A stretch of 63,227 bases of DNA, filler included, from Collodictyon triciliatum (taxonomy: Eukaryota), in the NCBI GenBank assembly GCA_043381765.1. It is 11 parts of 11 records of this genome, joined end to end, with 100 filler letters (N's around TTAATTAATTAA, not from the genome) between each part and the next. Parts side by side here need not be neighbours in the genome. Positions count along the whole stretch, not along the records: positions 46,064 to 51,718 come from JBHJMP010005043.1; 10 more parts are not named here. One strand, written 5' to 3'. Of the stretch, positions 45,964-56,054 are shown in pieces. Made by a program: the position numbers and the translations under genes. The notes beneath the pieces were generated by a model, which ran no database searches, was not told the origin of the DNA, and saw only the letters and a program-made list of their open reading frames with translations. Position 1 is the first letter of the stretch, and each line of letters begins with the position of its first letter.

Positions 45964-46076
45964 NNNNNNNNNNNNNNNNNNNNNNNNNNNNNNNNNNNNN
46001 NNNNNNNTTAATTAATTAANNNNNNNNNNNNNNNNNNNNNNNNNNNNNNNNNNNNNNNNNNNNTCTAGTCTTAGAT

Positions 46077-46241
46077 ATGCTACGACTATATACAATGGAG
46101 GGTGAAATGCTCTTTGCTACTTTTGAAGAACTGAAAGAATACTTTGACAAACTCGAGGCATTAAGAAAAAAGGGCAGGAAGAAGAAGGGGCCGCATATGT
46201 ACGGTATCATAGAAGGGCCGGTCAGAGTTAACTTTGATTAA
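46077..46241 (+). CDS. Small basic orphan protein (54 aa from first ATG; may extend beyond contig start)
   Basis: MLRLYTMEGEMLFATFEELKEYFDKLEALRKKGRKKKGPHMYGIIEGPVRVNFD*; below the ORF-track cutoff; the frame is open back to the contig start. Confidence 0.5.
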   Translation: MLRLYTMEGEMLFATFEELKEYFDKLEALRKKGRKKKGPHMYGIIEGPVRVNFD

Positions 46242-46317
46242 CCTAATATGGTATGATTGTGTTTTTATATATTAGTTATTAGATAGAAGTCCCTGAACCA
46301 TCGATTGTATACGGCAG

Positions 46318-46347
46318 ACACTGACACTGAAATTCCAGTGTCAGTGT
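46318..46347. other. Perfect inverted repeat (12-bp stem, 6-nt loop)
   Basis: ACACTGACACTG-aaattc-CAGTGTCAGTGT. Confidence 0.9.
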
Positions 46348-46396
46348 GTGAATTTCTTGCGCTAACCCCAAACCACTTTTACTTAAAAACCTCTAT

Positions 46397-46404
46397 AAAA
46401 TTGA
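46397..46404 (+). promoter_or_regulatory. Mimivirus-type early promoter motif AAAATTGA
   Basis: Exact AAAATTGA ending 46 nt before the TVpol-helicase ATG; related motifs precede the other element genes. Confidence 0.55.
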
Positions 46405-46450
46405 AACTTTAAAAAGAGGCTTAAAAACAATTAAACATAGCTTTATAAAA

Positions 46451-48856
46451 ATGACGACTTCTATTACAAAATACGAGATATTTGACCGTACGATAGCTAA
46501 TCGCCTGCTGAAGGAAGATGACTCTATTGTGACTGCGGAAGAAAAGAAAACAATTACAAAGCTACTTCGCAAGACAAAAAAAAATCTTCTGGAGGTAAAA
46601 TACAACTACGCTAAGGGATACGAGAATCTGAAAGTAGGACGAATGTATCCAAGTGGTCTGCAATCTTTAGGTTGTATGAACGGCAATATAGTTAGGAGTC
46701 CCATGTGTGAGCAATATTATTTTGATATAGACCAAGTAAATGCGCATTACAACATTGCTTATCAATATGCTGATAAACGTGGTATTGAGTGCAAGCATAT
46801 AAAACTGTATTGTGAGAATCGAGAGGAGAGCCTAGGCAAGGTGATGGAAGATTTTGGAATAGATCGTTTCGATGCCAAGATATTGTTTTTAAAGATTGCT
46901 TACGGTGGTAATCTGCCAGATGACGTGCCTGAAATGACAAAACCAATACCTAATGAAAAGCTATTGGGGGCTCTGCCTAAATTGAAAGACGAAATGGAAA
47001 TGTTGGCTGATTATGTTTGGTTGAATAATGTGAATTGGCATAACCTTAGTGTGAAAGGACGTAAGTTGAAAGATAGTGGTCCCAATAAGAAGTTTAAAAT
47101 GTTGTCTCTATTTTTACAAACAGAAGAACGTAAAATTCTTGAGGCCATGAACAAGTACTTCACGGACCAAGGTCGGTCAGTGGACGTCCTTATTCATGAC
47201 GGGTGCATGATTCGTAAAAATGAAGGAGAACTGTGCTTTCCTCGTGAGCTGATGTATACATGCGAAGAGTTTGTAAAAGAGTTTACTGGTTATTCGGTAA
47301 AGTTGGAAGAAAAACCGATTGTGTTTGATTGGGAATTTAAAGAACAAGAAACAACGTCAAGTACTGGTTTTTGGAAGAATCATTTTATGATGAATGGCAG
47401 ACTTTTGAAGGAGAGTCCGTTGTTAGAAAGGCCTGTTGTAATATCACACCCTCAAACCTATGTAATGAAGTACAATGAAGAATTTCCTTGTCAAGCAAAA
47501 GAAATCTTTGATATGATATGCAGTTTTCCAGAACGTGAGTATGATACGTATGGGTTTCATCCGTATGGCAAAGAGTGTCCTTCGAAAGTGTACAATACTT
47601 TTAATGGTTTTGAGTGGACCAAATTATATGATCGACCCGGTAAATTGTCCAACAAAGATTATTACTCGTTGATAGAAGAAATTACCGAAAGACCTGTTAG
47701 CCTTGAGGACACACGTAACTGGAAGAATTCAAAAACAAGGTGGCAGATTGAAGACATTATGTGTCATGACGACAATCCAGAAAAAAAAAATTATAACATC
47801 AAGTACTTTATTAATATCCTGGGTAATAGATTGTTTGCCCCAACAAAGCCATGTGAGAAAGTTCTGTGTTTGAGGAATAACATGGGAGGTTCGGGAAAGA
47901 CGGGTCTCATCGAAAGAAGTTTTGCCGAAAAGTTGCTAGGAGAGGAATATTTTACTTCACAGTCATCTGCAAAGCACGTATTTGGTGACTTTAATGCAAG
48001 CATAGCATCGAAACTGTTTATTTTATGTGAAGAGGCAGAGACAAAAGACACAAAAGAATTTACTGCTAACATCAAAGCTGCAGTAACCCGTAAGCGCAAC
48101 CCTATAAGATTAATGAAGACAGACATATTCAATGAGCAAAATTATTGTGTGTACATTGCGAATACCAATAAGCAAACAGCTTTTGAGTTTGACCCAAAGA
48201 ATCACCGTCGATTCCCACAGATTGATTGTAAAGAGTATCAATTAAGTCAAGAGGAAATTAAAGTTCTAAGAGACGAAACAGATAACCCGTATTACAACAG
48301 ATTGTTTTTTGAGTACATACTGCGCATGTATGATCCCAACTTTAACTTTGAGAAACATCCAGAGACTGAATCTGTCAAGAAACTTGTAGAGCGCTATAAG
48401 GATCCATTCATACAGTTTTTTGAGATAACACTGTACCATTGGGACGACTTTTATAATGAGAAATATCGAGACCCACGCGAATTCAAAAAGTACGACCTGG
48501 ATAAAAAAGCTGAGTGGGAAATTAAAGCAGAAGAGTATTGGCAATTGTTTATTAGTATCAGCAACGATATGGTTTCAAAGAAATACGCTGAAAGTATTCC
48601 GTTTGCTTCTTTCAGACAAAACGAACATTTGTTAGATTTGATGAAAACGTATCCTTTATACTTTAAAAAAACTGTTGTGACTTACTTGAAAAAGGGTGAA
48701 ACAAAAAAACAATTAGGCACGTACTATACAATTAATCTTGGAAAGTTTCGTGAGTTTTACAATCTAGAGTTTATTTCAAAAGAAAGCATGCGAACACTCG
48801 ACGACTATGCAGAGAGTGCTGCCAAGAAACAAAAAGTTCTACATGACCAAGAATAA
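46451..48856 (+). CDS. TVpol (family A-like primase-polymerase) fused to superfamily 3 (D5-like) helicase, 801 aa
   Basis: GRMYP..SL..VR; motif A YYFDIDQVNAH; motif B RFDAKILFLKIAYGG; LFLQTEERKIL; motif C VLIHDGCMI; helicase Walker A GGSGKT, Walker B FILCEE, motif C IANTNK, arginine finger RRF. Confidence 0.88.
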   Translation: MTTSITKYEIFDRTIANRLLKEDDSIVTAEEKKTITKLLRKTKKNLLEVKYNYAKGYENLKVGRMYPSGLQSLGCMNGNIVRSPMCEQYYFDIDQVNAHYNIAYQYADKRGIECKHIKLYCENREESLGKVMEDFGIDRFDAKILFLKIAYGGNLPDDVPEMTKPIPNEKLLGALPKLKDEMEMLADYVWLNNVNWHNLSVKGRKLKDSGPNKKFKMLSLFLQTEERKILEAMNKYFTDQGRSVDVLIHDGCMIRKNEGELCFPRELMYTCEEFVKEFTGYSVKLEEKPIVFDWEFKEQETTSSTGFWKNHFMMNGRLLKESPLLERPVVISHPQTYVMKYNEEFPCQAKEIFDMICSFPEREYDTYGFHPYGKECPSKVYNTFNGFEWTKLYDRPGKLSNKDYYSLIEEITERPVSLEDTRNWKNSKTRWQIEDIMCHDDNPEKKNYNIKYFINILGNRLFAPTKPCEKVLCLRNNMGGSGKTGLIERSFAEKLLGEEYFTSQSSAKHVFGDFNASIASKLFILCEEAETKDTKEFTANIKAAVTRKRNPIRLMKTDIFNEQNYCVYIANTNKQTAFEFDPKNHRRFPQIDCKEYQLSQEEIKVLRDETDNPYYNRLFFEYILRMYDPNFNFEKHPETESVKKLVERYKDPFIQFFEITLYHWDDFYNEKYRDPREFKKYDLDKKAEWEIKAEEYWQLFISISNDMVSKKYAESIPFASFRQNEHLLDLMKTYPLYFKKTVVTYLKKGETKKQLGTYYTINLGKFREFYNLEFISKESMRTLDDYAESAAKKQKVLHDQE

Positions 48857-48875
48857 ATGACTTAGTCCACACAAT

Positions 48876-49310
48876 TTATTGATAATCGTCAGGTGTAGGT
48901 GTTGATTTGAGAGAGTAAGAAATTTTAGGGGGAGAGTCAGGAGGGGTCAGGGCTTTACGGACGCGTTCCGCAGCAGCAATCAGAGAATTAGGGCTGCCAG
49001 ATTCGAGTGAAGAGTTTAGAGAACTTGAAGAGGTTCCTGAGTAATCAACGAGGGGCATCATGGCAGGCGCTTCGACGATTTGAAATTCATGCGAGCCATT
49101 GGTTTGCTTTCTTCGTGATTTTCTATTCACGTATGACTTGTGGTTGCTTCTGCGGAGTCTCCTGGCGATTTCTACCATTTGTCGCACGGCGTCCAGGTTT
49201 TCTCCCCATTCGATAAAACACAGGTAGTTGAGTCGTGCTAGTTCTTCTCCAGTCAGCGTGCGGGTGGTCATGTCGCTCATCTGTTCTTCTCTGTTGACGG
49301 TGCGGGCCAT
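48876..49310 (-). CDS. Orphan protein (~144 aa) with S/P-rich C-terminus
   Basis: ATG at 49310 (MARTVNREEQ...) inside ORF 48876..49427; GC-richer coding-like composition; divergent from the integrase. Confidence 0.6.
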   Translation of the reverse strand: MARTVNREEQMSDMTTRTLTGEELARLNYLCFIEWGENLDAVRQMVEIARRLRRSNHKSYVNRKSRRKQTNGSHEFQIVEAPAMMPLVDYSGTSSSSLNSSLESGSPNSLIAAAERVRKALTPPDSPPKISYSLKSTPTPDDYQ

Positions 49311-49400
49311 TGTTTGCTTAAAGTACTTATCAATTATAACGTAAGGTAAAATTGTCTTTAAGCTGCGTTTTTTACACAAAAAAAAATTATTCTTTATGTA

Positions 49401-50855
49401 ATGAGCAACGCAAGCACTAGTGACCAATACAACGAGAAGCTACAGAAAAGGTACAACGAGCCAGGGCAAGTAAACAGCGTCGAAGCGATGTATCGCCATT
49501 TCAACAAAGAAATACCTCGCAGTTACATTGAGGCTTGGATGAAAAAGAATCCCTATCAACAAATTAGCAAGCCTGCTTACAAAAGCAAGGACGTGACGTC
49601 CTTCAATGTTACCGACCCAAGTTACGCCCAAATAGATTTGATCTACACCAAGGGACTTTATCCAGAAGACCATACTGGAGTGAAATACAATTATCTAATG
49701 ACATGTGTTGTGCTTTTGACACGCAAGGTGTTTTTGTATCCGCTGATTGATAAGACTCTGGCCGAAAGCAAAAAGGCTGTGCTCGAATTCAAAAAAGATT
49801 ACCCTGCGTTAAAAGTTATTCAAAGCGACAATGGCACAGAGTTCAAGTACGAGAAAGCATGGCTACAAGAACACGGCCTCAAGCAAGTCAAGTCGAGTCC
49901 GTACAACCCTACGAGTCAGGCCTATGTGGAGCGCATGAATAGTGTGGTAAAGAATAGTCTCTACAAGTACCATCAAAAGACAGGAGCTACTATTACAAAA
50001 GAAGTGCTAGAAAAAACTGCAGACAGCATTAACGATCAGCCGAATCGTGACACCGGGGTGATTCCTAACAATGCGGCCACGAAAGAAAATCTGACAAAGC
50101 TTATAGAAGCTAACCAGAAAAAATTAGACCGGTCTGCTACATCCGCTAAGGACGACTTGCTAGAAATTGGACAGCTAGTCAGGGTGAACCTGAAGAAAAC
50201 AAATTTGACAACGCAAGAGCGTAATAAATTCAAGACCAATAAAAACTGGATCCCAAAATTCACTGTTGCGTTGTTTGAGATAGTGAGCAGAGAAGTTTCA
50301 AAGGATGGCTTTAAAGCCCCGACATATAAACTGAAGGCACTGAAAGAAAGTGATAAGGAAATATTGAAGGGAAAGAAATTTCTGCGCAGAGACCTACAGC
50401 CTGTAGACAAAGACACAGACAAAGAATTTACACCAAAGGTTGATTTGCTAAAGCGTGACGCTGCTAGTGTAAAAAAGAAGAGGGGGCCGTATCTGGCTTC
50501 GAACGTACAGAGCGCTCGAGCTGACTTTGATAAGAACGTGTGGACACCAGACACAAAGAATTTCACAAACCGCACTGGCAAGAATGCTCCAAGCAAGCCA
50601 GGGCGTCAAGCTGAGCTTGATAGGCTAGAACCGAAAGTCAAGGAAGCATATGAAGCGTTTGTTACTAAACACGGAGACAATCCTAAAATGACAACGCTAC
50701 AAACTAAAAACTTTAATAAGCTAAAAAGGATTATAGGCTCTTTATTGCGAGTTCAGCCTTCGGAAGAAGTAGCTGTAAGCAAACCAATCACCGTCGAGCA
50801 AATCAAGCCGATCAAGCGTCGGAAGATGACCGTGGTTTCTTCGCAGGCCTCTTAG
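49401..50855 (+). CDS. Retroviral-like (rve) DDE integrase, Polinton/Maverick type, 484 aa
   Basis: YAQIDL (D1), IQSDNGTEF (D2), SQAYVERMN (E; 33 residues between D2 and E); Polinton-style N-terminus (YNEP..SVEAMY...IEAWM...YQQ) and C-terminal IGQLVRV...FEIV...PTYKL...FLRRDLQPV. Confidence 0.92.
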   Translation: MSNASTSDQYNEKLQKRYNEPGQVNSVEAMYRHFNKEIPRSYIEAWMKKNPYQQISKPAYKSKDVTSFNVTDPSYAQIDLIYTKGLYPEDHTGVKYNYLMTCVVLLTRKVFLYPLIDKTLAESKKAVLEFKKDYPALKVIQSDNGTEFKYEKAWLQEHGLKQVKSSPYNPTSQAYVERMNSVVKNSLYKYHQKTGATITKEVLEKTADSINDQPNRDTGVIPNNAATKENLTKLIEANQKKLDRSATSAKDDLLEIGQLVRVNLKKTNLTTQERNKFKTNKNWIPKFTVALFEIVSREVSKDGFKAPTYKLKALKESDKEILKGKKFLRRDLQPVDKDTDKEFTPKVDLLKRDAASVKKKRGPYLASNVQSARADFDKNVWTPDTKNFTNRTGKNAPSKPGRQAELDRLEPKVKEAYEAFVTKHGDNPKMTTLQTKNFNKLKRIIGSLLRVQPSEEVAVSKPITVEQIKPIKRRKMTVVSSQAS

Positions 50856-51393
50856 ATTTCTTTATCTCAGTACTGATCTCCTTAGCCAGGGCTACAAGCT
50901 CGTCTGGCTTTTTCTCTCTTTTTTGCGCTTCATCTTTGTCTTCTTCTTGAAGCATTTTTTCAACCTTGGCTACAACTTTGCGTTTCTCTGCACGGGCTGG
51001 GGCATTCTCTATATGTTTTTTCAATCCTTTTTCTCGCTTAGCCTGGTTAGCTTCATCGGACTGTCGATAAATGTCTCCAATGTCCTTTGTGTTGTTTGTC
51101 CAACTTTTGCCATAATTAGTCATACCCAATACTTTGCCTTCTTGATCTTTCCAGAGAGCGTCTCCCACTTCATTCTGAATCAGAGACACAAACCCTTGGT
51201 TGACCTTGGCTGGATATTCCTTGTCTTTGTACGTGCGAGCTTTTACTTCGTACATAATGTAGTCACCTTTCTTGAGGTCACTGTATTGAACCTTTGTGTA
51301 ATCTTTGTCGTCGGTGGGCAAGGCAGTCTTGGTCTTGGGTTTCTTGGCGTCGTCTTCGCTGGGGGTTTTGCGGACATACTTGCGGGGCGGCAT
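50812..51393 (-). CDS. Lysine-rich orphan protein, 193 aa, possible SH3/Tudor-like beta-barrel
   Basis: Clean ATG-start ORF MPPRKYVRK...; central DLKKGDYIMY...GFVS...LGMTNYGKSW..DIYRQ; 3' end overlaps the integrase by 44 bp. Confidence 0.7.
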   Translation of the reverse strand: MPPRKYVRKTPSEDDAKKPKTKTALPTDDKDYTKVQYSDLKKGDYIMYEVKARTYKDKEYPAKVNQGFVSLIQNEVGDALWKDQEGKVLGMTNYGKSWTNNTKDIGDIYRQSDEANQAKREKGLKKHIENAPARAEKRKVVAKVEKMLQEEDKDEAQKREKKPDELVALAKEISTEIKKSKRPAKKPRSSSDA

Positions 51394-51576
51394 ACTGAAT
51401 GAATGATAATGATTTTATAAAACAAACGCGTTTCAATTTACAAAAGTTGCTCGTGCCTATATACTCAGAAGATGGATATATATGGAAGGTAAGCGTTAAT
51501 TGAGGGTGTAATGTTTTGTGGTCAAGGGGCGAGACAGTATATAAACCCCTGAAATTTTGAGGTTCACAAGGTTCGC

Positions 51577-51619
51577 TGTGGAATTTGTAACTCCATAATA
51601 GATAGTTACAAATTCCACA
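51577..51619. other. Perfect inverted repeat (16-bp stem, 11-nt loop)
   Basis: TGTGGAATTTGTAACT-ccataatagat-AGTTACAAATTCCACA. Confidence 0.92.
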
Positions 51620-51828
51620 TAAATCTTATAATTTTTGAAGTGGGGCTGCCATTCACTGCGCTGGATAAAATCTTTTCCTGGGAAAATTCAGATGTTTGGA
51701 TAAATCCTTTTTCTAATTNNNNNNNNNNNNNNNNNNNNNNNNNNNNNNNNNNNNNNNNNNNNTTAATTAATTAANNNNNNNNNNNNNNNNNNNNNNNNNN
51801 NNNNNNNNNNNNNNNNNNGTGTGTGTTT

Positions 51829-51882
<54 letters not shown>

Positions 51883-51981
51883 AAGAGTGCATTAATTGCT
51901 AATTTTCTGGAAGCGAAAAGCGAACGTAATCAAAGAATATTCGTTCACAGATTCAAACTACAAGTGTTGGGCAATCATAGG

Positions 51982-54900
51982 TCACAAGCCTTTTGGCGTG
52001 TAGTAGTTGCCTTTCACAGAGTGCGCCGCACCACTGCCCAGAGTTGCTTTCAGTTCGTATGAGCCGGGTCCTGGTCCGGCCGGAGCTGTCAAATGGTGCA
52101 TTGTCAGGCCGCAAGATGATACATGGTAGCTCATTATTTAGATTATAGCGCACGTTGCTTTTGATAACTGGAAGTTTACAGTTGAGCAAACCTTCTTTCT
52201 TGGTTCTTCTTTCATACAGCGAGTAAGCTGGCGCACTTCCAAGTAATGAAGGAATCATATACTTTCCAGGGCCGGGGACATCCAGTTCTATGTTTTTTGT
52301 CATAAAAAAAAGTGGCTTATATAATTGCGATTTCAAAGCACTAATAAAATGGGTACCACGTGTGGGAAATCAGAAAGAAAAAGAAGAGAGGTATATTCGT
52401 ATACTCTTTTGAGGCGGAATGGCTTCAGATATAGTGAACGACGGCGCTGTGCCAGTTGAGTTCGGATGAGAATAAGCTCCAGGCCCGGGAGTTGAGGACG
52501 CTTTACAACATGCATTTATAAATATTTATTGTGAGCTAACTTTCGGTTTTAAACATATCACTTGGTCAGTATCGTTACCATTATTATGTCAAAAAAAAAA
52601 CCCGAATCAAGCAAACCCGAGCGACTTGGTGCACGTCCTGGCATGGAATACGCAGGTGCTTCACCAAATCTAGAGCGCAGTTGATAAGCTCCAGGTCCAG
52701 GAACATCATCGCCTACATTTCACCATAAATAAGTCTTATTGGGAAGAGAAAAAAGAGCAAGAAAAATATGATGAATAAGGTATAAACGAATAAAATATAA
52801 TTGTGAAATTATATGATTAATTTACATGGACAATTCGAAAATTGAGACCTTTTGGAGGAGGGAACTTTCCTCTTACAGAATATGTGATTACAGGGTCGGT
52901 AAACAATTGGGGGTTGTATGCTCCAGGCCCGGGTGTATACGAGTCTGATTGTTTTTTTGAGAGAAAGAATGAACTTTTAAGTGGTCTACAAGGGTTTAGA
53001 AAAAGTGTTAGTTTATATTACATTCTGTATTATTTTTCTCTAGTCTTTAAATCAACCTTCCTTTGTTGGAGAACGGCCTCGCATAGTCCAGGAGGGCCCC
53101 TCTCCAACAAAACGCGGGGCCTCATACTTTCCGGGTCCGGGCGTGTTCGTTTCTTTTGTGTTTATTGATGACAAGTAGTACCGTGAATATGTAATTATAA
53201 AATATTAATAATTATATCAGCCATCCTCCCATGTTCATGTAGTTCACTGGAAATCATAACAAGCTTACCAGTTGCGCTATTTGATTTTTGCCTCATTGTG
53301 TACGATTCTGATTGCCCTATGTGGCTGTGGCTCTCATACTTGCCTGGCCCCGGATATGATTCGCCTATATTGTGATATATTTCAATATTGATGATAAGCT
53401 ATCTCTAGAGTCATATATAAAGAGAAAAATTCACGTTTTGGGGAGCCCGGTCGGCCGTTCATCGAGTATGCTGGAGCTTGGCCAAGTTTTGCACCAATAT
53501 GGTAAGCACCAGGGCCGGGTGTTTGAAGCGCTAGCAGAAATGAGAGCGAGTAAGATAAACTAATTGTTAATACTGAGTGATTTTTCATATAATTCAAAAA
53601 GAGGAATGTTATAGATGATACATGCCATGAAAAATAGGCTGTGAAGAAAAATTGAGGAAAACAACGAAATGTAGTGCATACACAATAAAAAAAAAAAATA
53701 CATTTTTCATATGCGGAGCGTCCACTCATGGTGTGCGCTTGTGCAATTCCAAAAAGTGGGCTAATTGTATACGATGCAGGTCCTGGAGAGACTTTAATTT
53801 CGGCATCTTTTTTACGCCCATTCATAGAATATGAGGGTGCCGTCCCAAGCAAGGAGTGATGTTGATAAGCACCTGGCCCAGGCGTTTGAAATCCTAACCA
53901 TACAATTTTTTTTTAAAATTATTTCATTTCCAAAACGGCATTGTTTGATTGAGGAGAGGGAATATTTTTTTATTGTTGCACTTTTTCTGATCTAATTTGG
54001 TTACCTGATTGAGTATCTCTCTTATTTCCAAAAGTGTAAGAGTAGCTTTCTCCAATGTAGCTGATTGATTTGTATGCATCTGGAGATGGGGTCAAGTATC
54101 CTGAAAGAAAACAAAATCATACAGTGAAATTTCAGAAGAAAAATAGTTGAATGAATAAGAAATTTTCGTTCCATTAAGGACACCTCGTGTTGGTCTTGGG
54201 CGACCAGGCATTGTGAAAGAAGCCGCCTCTCCTAAACGTGACCGTATTTCATACTTGCCCGGTCCGGGAACATCATCGACTAAAAATAAAGATAAAAAAC
54301 ATACCATAACATTTGAGAAAGGCGAAATGGTTCATATCATAAAATGAATAAACCACTACATGAACTACTGAATAAAGCTAAAAGAGATGTCGATGTATAA
54401 TAAATCAACAAATAATTCGGCCTTGAACAGAATAAAGGAGAAAATGAACAAATGATTAGAATAAAAGAAAAAAAAGGGAACTTATTAGGATTTAATATTC
54501 CCAATATTTCTTAATCTATTTGCCATGTATGCAGTTCAAAATATCCAGCGTATCATATGTTAATTATTTGCCCACTTTTTAGAGTAGGTCTCTTTGCACA
54601 CATCGAATAGGCCGATGACGTCCCGATTTGAGACGGGCTTTCATACGAACCAGGTCCTGGGGTTACATGACCAGCTGCATTCCAAGGCAAATAAGAAAAA
54701 CTGTGGTTGCATCGAAACAGAAGTACAGAAATACAGAAATACAGAAATACAGAAATACAGAAATACAGAAATACAGAAATACAGAAATACAGAAATACAG
54801 AAATACAGAAATACAGAAATACAGAGAGAGAGAGTTTAAATGGTTTACGACCATTGAGGTCAATTAATTGACAGGTTTACCTTTCTTGGTAGTCCGTCGT

Positions 54901-56054
54901 TCATACATCGAGTAAGAGGGAGATTCACCGATGAATGACTTTGAAGAATACACGTTTGGGCCCGGTGTTTGAGGCACTGTAATAAATAAAATACAATAAC
55001 ATGATAAAGTCTTTTAGTAAAGACTATTGATTTTTTCGAGGGACATGTTTCATGAGGAATGGTACATTTTCATCGAAATTATATCCAACTTTTTTCGGGA
55101 CTGTAAGGCCCAGTCATCGTATAAGATGGTGCGCTCCCCACTGATGATTTTATATTGTAGGCTCCAGGACCTGGAGTCAATGGCTCTTTTTCTAGTAAAT
55201 TGCTAAGATTATCAAGTACTCAATAACCATAACCATACAGGCTTCCCCCATCCGGGTTGAATATGATAGATGCACTTCGGAGGCTGATTGATGTACCATT
55301 GTGATTATTCCGTTTTCCACTTTGTCGGCCACTCATAGAATGGGATGGAGCATCGCCGATGTATGACGGTGTGTTGTATGCACCCGGACCAGGCACATCA
55401 AACACTTTCGAGTGGCACAAGTCCAATACATAGATTAATAATAACATATAAGAAGTACGAAAGCGATGTTCTAATCAATTAAATACAGAGAGTCAATTAT
55501 TAGATTAATCTACAATATTACTAGGATAAGGAGACAAAAAGATATATAGATCAAATTTGGCACACATCAAGACAATCCACTTGCATAAATATATATAATT
55601 GAGTTGAAAAGACACGCAATTGGAGGATAATACTAAATAAGATGATGAAACTAAGAAGCCTCAGAATAAAGACGCCAGCTGTTCAAAATCAAACCTGATT
55701 GATACATTATTATGTGTTAGCAAAACGGAGAGAAAAATAGAATTAAATAAAAACTAAATAGTTAATAGTTAAATAACGCCAGGATATAAAAACAAAACAA
55801 AACAAAACAAAACAAAACAAAACAAAACAAAACAAAACAAAACCTTTCGGAGGATTACGCCGCGAGCCCATCGTCCAGCTCCCTGAGTCGGGCAAAGGTG
55901 ATATTGGCGTGTATGCACCTGGCCCGGGTGTCGTTGGGCGAGCCTTGTATTGTGCCAAGGCCGGCATTGCTGAGACAGACATATTGCGCCCTGCTTGGCC
56001 CACTAAAAAGTGACCAGCGGCGATTTGCGCGCGGTGATCAGAATAGAGTCTCAT
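51982..56054 (-). CDS. ODF3/SHIPPO-repeat (PGP-motif) ciliary protein, ~17 repeats
   Basis: Repeated units xTPGPGAY/DVPGPGKY...APAYSM.GR, nearly all on separate short exons; last exon GPGPGSYELKATLGSGAAHSVKGNYYTPKGL* (TGA 51982-51984). Start uncertain (56054 or 55982). Confidence 0.88.
54724..54825 (+). repeat. (ACAGAAAT)n 8-bp intronic repeat
   Basis: Directly visible. Confidence 0.9.

Follow-up and report, generated by a model that had tools for sequence, protein, structure and literature searches.

The replicase gene and its family

The sequence analysed here is a stretch of 63,227 nucleotides from the Collodictyon triciliatum assembly GCA_043381765.1 (hereafter the window), and one of its contigs, JBHJMP010005043.1, carries an intact gene for an 801-amino-acid (aa) replicase of the TVpol-S3H type. 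The protein joins a TVpol domain with a family A polymerase fold to a D5-like superfamily 3 (SF3) helicase, has the conserved active-site residues of both, belongs to a large protein family and is encoded in linkage with a predicted rve-type integrase; very probably it is the replication protein of a virophage-type or polinton-like virus (PLV)-type element. The contig, the gene and its functional sites are as follows (positions count along the window, residues along the protein).

46064 to 51718: contig carrying the replicase gene (5655 bp), bounded by spacers on both sides
46451 to 48856, plus strand: intact TVpol-S3H replicase gene, ATG to stop, 801 aa
46451 to 47335, plus strand: TVpol domain (residues 1 to ~295), comprising thumb, palm and fingers, no exonuclease
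46730 to 46732, plus strand: D94, catalytic Asp of motif A, within DIDQVNAH, which starts at D92 (nucleotide 46724)
46865 to 46909, plus strand: motif B (fingers), R139-FDA-K143-ILF-L147-KIA-Y151-G152-G153
47195 to 47203, plus strand: motif C, H249-D250-G251, located where a predicted beta hairpin turns
47351 to 48439, plus strand: D5-like SF3 helicase module made up of a collar and an AAA+ core, residues 301-663
47885 to 47902, plus strand: Walker A, GGSGKT, residues 479-484
48029 to 48034, plus strand: Walker B, E527-E528
48164 to 48169, plus strand: SF3 motif C, T572-N573 (sensor 1)
48206 to 48211, plus strand: R586-R587, Arg finger
48440 to 48853, plus strand: C-terminal tail, residues 664-801, mostly of low confidence in the model (predicted local distance difference test, pLDDT, 40-70)

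An earlier note on this DNA had described an uninterrupted 801-aa open reading frame (ORF), motif A near 46724, motif B, motif C (HDG) near 47195 and a complete SF3 set of Walker A and B, motif C and Arg finger. The frame runs from ATG to stop as described, all of the motifs lie where they had been placed, and the helicase assignment is confirmed by both Pfam and the predicted fold. With the base composition of the ORF itself, a random codon is a stop with a probability of ~7.7%, and the chance of 801 codons staying open is ~1.5e-28.

When 5.8 billion proteins were searched by word index for matches to residues 1-420, 16 relatives of 697-824 aa came up (identity 82% to 28%), against which the replicase is full length at both its N and C ends. 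All of these are from metagenome or Logan assemblies and none has an informative name, "hypothetical protein" being the only label given; the nearest relatives, at 49-82% identity, are likewise unnamed. A scan of IMG/VR found 56 viral-contig loci with relatives, 52 of which have a matching ORF of 681-914 aa; among the four shorter ORFs, three run into the end of the locus DNA and the remaining one (locus L056) encodes 547 aa. A profile built from alignment A2, which consists of window residues 1-310 and the matching parts of 51 IMG/VR loci, matched 8331 proteins at E<=1e-3 (1626 at E<=1e-30) among 1.84 billion cluster representatives, and 134 of the 150 matches listed are fused forms of at least 600 aa. 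In a phage collection, 77 records were matched by tblastn, and the 25 matches listed all cover only residues 348-795, which is the helicase half. The intact frame and the consensus residues may point to recent activity or selection; synonymous sites are saturated, as even L057, the nearest relative in DNA, shares only 58% identity in its replicase protein.

The architecture itself is well known. TV-Pol was defined by Iyer et al. (2008, PMC2579912), who predicted both primase and polymerase activity on the argument that TV-Pol replaces the archaeo-eukaryotic primase (AEP) prim-pol ahead of the D5-like helicase and that Sputnik, as described there, has no other replication enzyme. Fusions of PolA(TVpol) and SF3 are reported in Sputnik, Organic Lake virophage (OLV) and Yellowstone Lake virophage 1 (YSLV1) (PMC3671162), in the Phaeocystis globosa virus virophage (PgVV) and PLVs (PMC4642659), and in a cryptophyte PLV cluster, where they are the dominant replicase (PMC12220804), and they are described as "particularly common" in these viruses alongside widespread exchange of replicases (bioRxiv 10.64898/2026.10.13.758929). 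The virophage proteins (Sputnik V13, Zamilon, OLV25, Qinghai Lake) and the PLV replicases have the same two-domain architecture at ~780-800 aa, and the conserved Asp, RxxxK and Arg set given for TV-Pols in PMC2579912 is also found in the window protein, which is only ~29% identical to the virophage proteins named among its structural matches. Relatives of the window protein also occur on contigs with Sputnik-type capsid genes. The window gene is therefore one more member of a known, common and published architecture, and as a finding of a genome scan it is ordinary.

Folds and active sites of the two halves

The AlphaFold2 model of residues 1-310, computed with A2, has a pLDDT of 90.8 and a predicted template-modelling score (pTM) of 0.88. 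A Foldseek search of the PDB with this model returned 136 chains at E<=1e-3, and all 50 of those listed are family A DNA polymerases, the top match being the Klenow fragment 1kfd (E 2.2e-6, TMq 0.57). Structural alignment by VIA-align gave Z scores of 14-17 with ~267 residues aligned at a root-mean-square deviation (rmsd) of 3.4-3.9 A, including Pol theta (9au5_A, Z 16.9), T7 DNA polymerase (6p7e_B, Z 15.5), Bst (4dsj_A, Z 15.4) and Klenow (1kfd, Z 15.2; 269 residues, rmsd 3.9). Model residues 1..292 already span Klenow 530..926, T7 DNA polymerase 218..702 and Pol theta 2078..2584, so that no place is left for an exonuclease domain; the model starts at the thumb, and Pfam has no match in the N-terminal part. 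The earlier note, which had seen no evident exonuclease domain and had named a PolA-like palm in the predicted structure as a test of its reading, is borne out on both counts. Among the predicted viral structures in BFVD, the best matches of the TVpol domain are viral proteins of 700-1050 aa, including the Zamilon virophage "DNA replication protein", 29% identical and matched at E 1.4e-21 with TMq 0.78, and the "helicase/primase/polymerase" of Qinghai Lake virophage (E 2.7e-12), and phage Pol I proteins appear only below these. As modelled, the N-terminal half retains only the thumb, palm and fingers of the family A polymerase fold, the minimal nuclease-free core, with an RRM-like palm, that defines TV-Pols. 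It shares this fold, and the colinear order of motifs A, B (R-x3-K-x7-YG) and C (HD), with Klenow, Taq, Bst, T7 gp5 and Pol theta, but it differs from them in its size (~300 residues versus at least 400), in an identity of only ~10-13%, in having neither a 3'-5' nor a 5'-3' exonuclease, and in two active-site residues considered below.

Early annotation of Sputnik V13 took the N-terminal domain for an AEP primase. For the window protein this reading is ruled out by a fold and motifs that are those of PolA, and no match to an AEP, TOPRIM or other primase domain was found in residues 1-430 by Pfam, PHROG or NCBIfam. The N-terminal domain also has no zinc-binding Cys/His pairs, the sole C/H pair pattern in the protein being C468..C473.

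In the model, D94 closes the strand 90-95 ahead of the helix 98-109, as in motif A of PolA, and H249-D250-G251 makes the hairpin turn that joins strand 244-248 to strand 251-255, again as in motif C of PolA. The profile alignment by hhalign places D94 on Klenow D705, H249-D250 on H881-D882, R139/K143/L147/Y151/G152 on PolA R754/K758/F762/Y766/G767 and Q223 on Q849, and it pairs G63-R64 with T-G-R668 and R82 with R682, a probable match to the conserved Arg that a beta hairpin ahead of the palm supplies in TV-Pols. As hhalign is weak by itself, this register rests on the motif patterns, the positions of the predicted strand-helix and hairpin elements, and invariance among 211 relatives. In these relatives, D94 is Asp in 210 (the remaining one has a gap), D250, K143 and E226 are each kept in all 211, R64 and R82 each in 210, G251 in 209 and R139 in 184. 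The earlier note's second test, that the aspartates align with the catalytic positions, thus has a positive outcome through a weak alignment that the motifs and the invariance support, and we infer that the TVpol residues in this register are probably equivalent to their PolA counterparts. At the tabulated near-invariant catalytic and core positions, the window protein has the commonest residue of the family, the variable position 95 excepted, and it retains the conserved active-site set of the family.

Several results weigh against a simple assignment to the family A polymerases. Residues 1-430 have no match in Pfam, PHROGs, NCBIfam or the PDB sequences, and NCBIfam has nothing for the replicase as a whole; the whole protein and the TVpol profiles reach only chance level against PDB chain sequences, with no PolA among the matches; and in the Pfam scan, none of 52 N-terminal domains matches PF00476 (DNA_pol_A) even at E 10. 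Against an alignment of seven PolA sequences taken from annotated records (E. coli polA, five phage Pol I genes and T7 gene 5), the 211-sequence TVpol alignment gave an hhalign Prob of 2.8-3.0% with pairwise E of 0.0055-0.015, and against E. coli PolA alone the Prob was 0.2%; over all comparisons to PolA, the pairwise E of 0.0055-0.29 is statistically weak, and the TVpol and PolA alignments are colinear over 249-269 columns. The window TVpol is too diverged for detection by Pfam or hidden Markov models, whereas the polymerase CcPol of the staphylococcal cassette chromosome SCCmec is much closer to Pol I. The kinship of TV-Pol to family A polymerases was itself obtained from iterated searches by way of bacterial members, according to PMC2579912. 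In the active site, the third carboxylate of PolA (E883) is replaced by Gly (G251; 209/211), and the position of the steric-gate E710 in the alignment (window residue 99) holds His in 178 and Gln in 31 of the 211 relatives, and His in the window protein; with these two replacements, the chemistry of TVpol may differ from that of Pol I. An additional invariant Glu (E226; 211/211) is located on the helix before motif C, after a conserved Gln.

The C-terminal half, as indicated by its sequence and model, is a D5-like SF3 helicase with a D5N-like collar. Pfam assigns residues 479-587 to DUF5906 (5.7e-12, 46.7 bits versus a cut-off of 27.6) and also finds a VapE-like match (7e-9, 35.9 bits versus a cut-off of 25), and PHROG families named "DNA primase" match residues 433-612. 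K483 and R587 are kept in every one of the C-terminal halves that were aligned (44/44), and G482 and N573 are conserved in at least 90% of them. The model of residues 301-801 has a pLDDT of 77.6, with 83-97 per 10-residue block over model residues 61-340. Its best structural match is the helicase region of NrS-1, aligned over 306 residues at an rmsd of 3.9 (Foldseek E 4e-12, Z 22.4); next come SaPI5 Rep (Z 17.9), the PrimPol of African swine fever virus (ASFV; Z 16.7) and vaccinia D5 and mpox E5 (Z 15-16), followed by adeno-associated virus (AAV) Rep and papillomavirus E1 (Z ~11). The proteins of NrS-1, the poxviruses (D5/E5), ASFV and SaPI5 share with the window protein the collar and AAA+ fold (Z 22.4 to 15), the motifs and the layout of an N-terminal primase-polymerase followed by a C-terminal helicase, but their N-terminal domain has the AEP fold where the window protein has the PolA fold. 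Iyer et al. (2008, PMC2579912) argued that PolA took the place of AEP by non-homologous replacement.

The surrounding contig and its provenance

The window consists of 11 separate contigs of 5654-5663 bp each, in order of falling length, with ten copies of a spacer of the form N(~45)-TTAATTAATTAA-N(~44) spaced regularly between them (0.05 matches expected by chance). The contigs were joined artificially; the sequences on the two sides of any spacer are unrelated, and arguments from flanking genes that cross a spacer need rechecking. The remaining features are given below.

5708, 11468, 17228, 22985, 28741, 34497, 40253, 46008, 51763 and 57518: spacers
46064 to 46241, plus strand: 3' end of an upstream gene, open from the first base, with TAA at 46239-46241, cut by the contig edge
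46315 to 46350: near-perfect hairpin with a 12+2 bp stem, ~100 bp upstream of the replicase ATG
48876 to 49427, minus strand: ORF183, 183 aa, between the replicase and integrase genes
49401 to 50855, plus strand: predicted rve/DDE-type integrase, 484 aa
50812 to 51393, minus strand: ORF193, 193 aa, rich in Lys, its core conserved at residues ~25-110
51577 to 51619: hairpin with a 16-bp stem in the terminal intergenic region
51953 to 56054, minus strand: short PGPG(A/V)Y-repeat ORFs with non-coding stretches between them, on the next contig

The contig is only part of a larger element of the virophage or PLV type. Both of its ends are overrun by metagenome contigs that are ~92-94% identical, and the cut upstream gene is covered by metagenome contigs that continue past the edge. 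Four freshwater or lake metagenome runs from 4 studies contain DNA that is 92-99% identical to parts of the contig: metagenome contigs match 46064-46239 and 48895-51439 at 92-94% identity, and one run has short pieces of 98-99% identity inside the replicase ORF. Five sequencing runs were listed as containing such DNA, with small shares only, and none of those listed is an RNA run. Certain features of a complete integrated element are missing from the 5655 bp, and this counts against the assignment: ORF reading and Pfam found no capsid genes on the contig, which is cut at both ends, and there are no terminal inverted repeats of at least 18 nt between the two contig ends and no junction with host DNA. 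Packaging ATPase and protease genes were likewise not found by ORF reading and Pfam on this fragment, and no gene of the contig has a second copy within the window.

The integrase matches Pfam rve at 5.8e-6, where its 26.9 bits fall short of the 32.6 required, and the NCBIfam models for IS481, IS30 and IS3 transposases at E 1.6e-12 (IS481-like) to 1.3e-8, all below their cut-offs. Its homologue in locus L058, which is 38% identical, passes the rve cut-off at 46 bits. In this respect the element differs from Sputnik, for which PMC2579912 describes an integrase of the phage (tyrosine) type. L058, a close relative with DNA context (50% identity), encodes a replicase, a homologue of ORF193, an rve integrase and an A32-like packaging ATPase, the last of which is also encoded by L057. 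More distant replicase relatives are located on viral contigs of 20-30 kb with virophage capsid genes. L025 encodes a replicase relative (tblastn E 1e-53) together with a major capsid protein of the Sputnik type (PF21915 at 1.4e-77 and PF22031 at 1.7e-47) and V18/19, the minor capsid protein that is also present in L002 and L004. Other genes on these loci include those for a SLATT_4 domain protein, a PDDEXK nuclease and an N6/N4 DNA methylase in L002 (positions listed: L002:15852-16445, minus strand, and L002:8404-9694), and for the small subunit of ribonucleotide reductase and a D12 methyltransferase in L025 (L025:7254-8183 among those listed).

ORF193 travels with the replicase and the integrase. 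Its core has the pattern GDYI.Y..K.R.Y ... GF.S.I.NE ... W..N, and its homologues (L058:3720-4202 and L060:1175-1666) are each located directly downstream of a replicase gene. No family match was obtained in Pfam, PHROGs or the ESM Atlas, and the protein is a candidate DNA-binding or cofactor protein. ORF183 overlaps the start of the integrase gene by 27 nt on the opposite strand and has a C end rich in Ser and Pro; no relatives were found by Pfam or among the retrieved relative loci, and its DNA is ~93% conserved in metagenome contigs. The two near-perfect hairpins that flank the gene block are estimated at -14 kcal/mol (z -4.6) for 46315..46350 and -15 kcal/mol (z -5.9) for 51577..51619, and in both cases 0/200 shuffled sequences fold equally well; they may be terminators, promoter elements or origin elements.

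An 8.4-kb freshwater metagenome contig has both flanks at ~92% identity and a different replicase slot, in which the 2655 nt between 46239 and 48895, with the replicase gene, are replaced by 2733 letters of <85% identity. The difference could be due either to faster divergence of the slot or to exchange of a replicase cassette between near-identical elements, and differing slots between ~92% identical flanks would fit swapped cassettes.

The DNA could also derive from a free or episomal virophage or PLV, or from a co-sampled organism, and not from a chromosome of the assembled organism. We regard this as a serious possibility, though not the likelier one. The contig belongs to a set of 11 unplaced contigs, each ~5.65 kb, and has no host junction, and DNA of 92-99% identity is present in the four freshwater or lake runs, all of which would fit such an origin. 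It encodes, on the other hand, a predicted rve-type integrase, similar elements are reported to be integrated in many protist genomes (PMC12220804), the other contigs of the window are eukaryote-like, and its GC content of 0.398 is within the 0.34-0.40 of the neighbouring contigs. The eukaryote-like features of the other contigs include microsatellites and split PGPG-repeat ORFs. The PGPG(A/V)Y ORFs at 51953-56054 resemble exons of a eukaryotic PG-rich repeat gene, which may be SHIPPO-like, and they suggest the assembly of a eukaryote. As the contig is unplaced, the gene says nothing new about the host.

Proposed mechanism and priming

By inference from the families of its two halves, the helicase half would form a hexameric ring that opens the DNA of the element, driven by ATP through K483, E527/E528, N573 and R587. 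The tethered TVpol half would then synthesise DNA on the exposed single strand, with D94 and D250 making up its two-metal site and K143, R139 and Y151 binding the incoming nucleotide, and it may start chains de novo or, failing that, extend them. The integrase would insert a copy of the element into a host or giant-virus genome. From the position of the domain and from the literature, we slightly favour de novo priming by the single polypeptide.

The only TV-Pol with biochemical data is CcPol, likewise a family A polymerase without proofreading that is linked to a D5/COG3378-type helicase (Cch2) and a recombinase on a mobile element. CcPol is an active polymerase that extends primers alone and primes only with its partner MP, which has an oligonucleotide/oligosaccharide-binding (OB) fold (PMC7581432, PMC10061031), and its two catalytic aspartates are needed for both extension and priming (PMC7581432). 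This behaviour speaks against unaided priming by the window protein. CcPol is a separate polypeptide, however, whereas the window protein is fused to its helicase and is accompanied by no identified MP-like partner. The 2020 paper on CcPol states that no other TV-Pol had been characterised by then, and a single literature search listed no biochemical work on a virophage V13-type protein or on a TVpol of a eukaryotic virus.

TVpol may accordingly be a primer-dependent polymerase only, with priming provided by a partner protein (cf. CcPol-MP) or by a host or giant-virus primase, and with the fusion serving strand synthesis coupled to the helicase. This is rather unlikely in our estimation. The inability of CcPol to begin synthesis de novo without MP (PMC7581432) would fit it, as would the N-terminal domain, in which no zinc-binding motif is found (C468..C473 is the only C/H pair pattern), and the small conserved ORF193 that accompanies the replicase in L058 and L060. 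Yet PMC2579912 describes the fusion as the only replication enzyme of virophages such as Sputnik and places TVpol in the position held by AEP or DnaG primases in other fusions with D5-like helicases, and no OB-fold partner was identified here. That the gene is a decaying endogenous viral relic, with the open frame a leftover and the protein non-functional or unexpressed, could be read from a short unplaced contig fragment without structural genes and an integrase below its Pfam cut-off, but it is very improbable in view of 801 open codons at a stop probability of ~7.7% per codon, the family-commonest residues at the tabulated near-invariant positions (other than the variable position 95), N and C ends that are full length versus relatives, three other intact ORFs on the contig, and fragments of 98-99% identity in a freshwater metagenome.

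Returning to a replicase that can prime, the TVpol of this clade could perhaps be an RNA/DNA primase of PolA fold that takes ribonucleotides and starts chains, with ORF193 as its single-stranded DNA-binding cofactor. This is a speculative and quite doubtful proposal, to which the His/Gln at the E710 position, the Gly in motif C and the extra invariant E226 point.

The replicase is the expected replication gene of a virophage- or PLV-type element, in a family that is very large (8331 cluster representatives). With its open frame, all of its catalytic residues and a TVpol model at a pLDDT of 91, the window protein is a compact candidate for the first assay of a virophage or PLV TVpol-helicase, which would touch on the questions of whether an enzyme of PolA fold can prime unaided and of which nucleotides it chooses. 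If the doubtful proposal above were true, the family would include an RNA/DNA primase of PolA fold with ORF193 as a priming cofactor, as MP is for CcPol.

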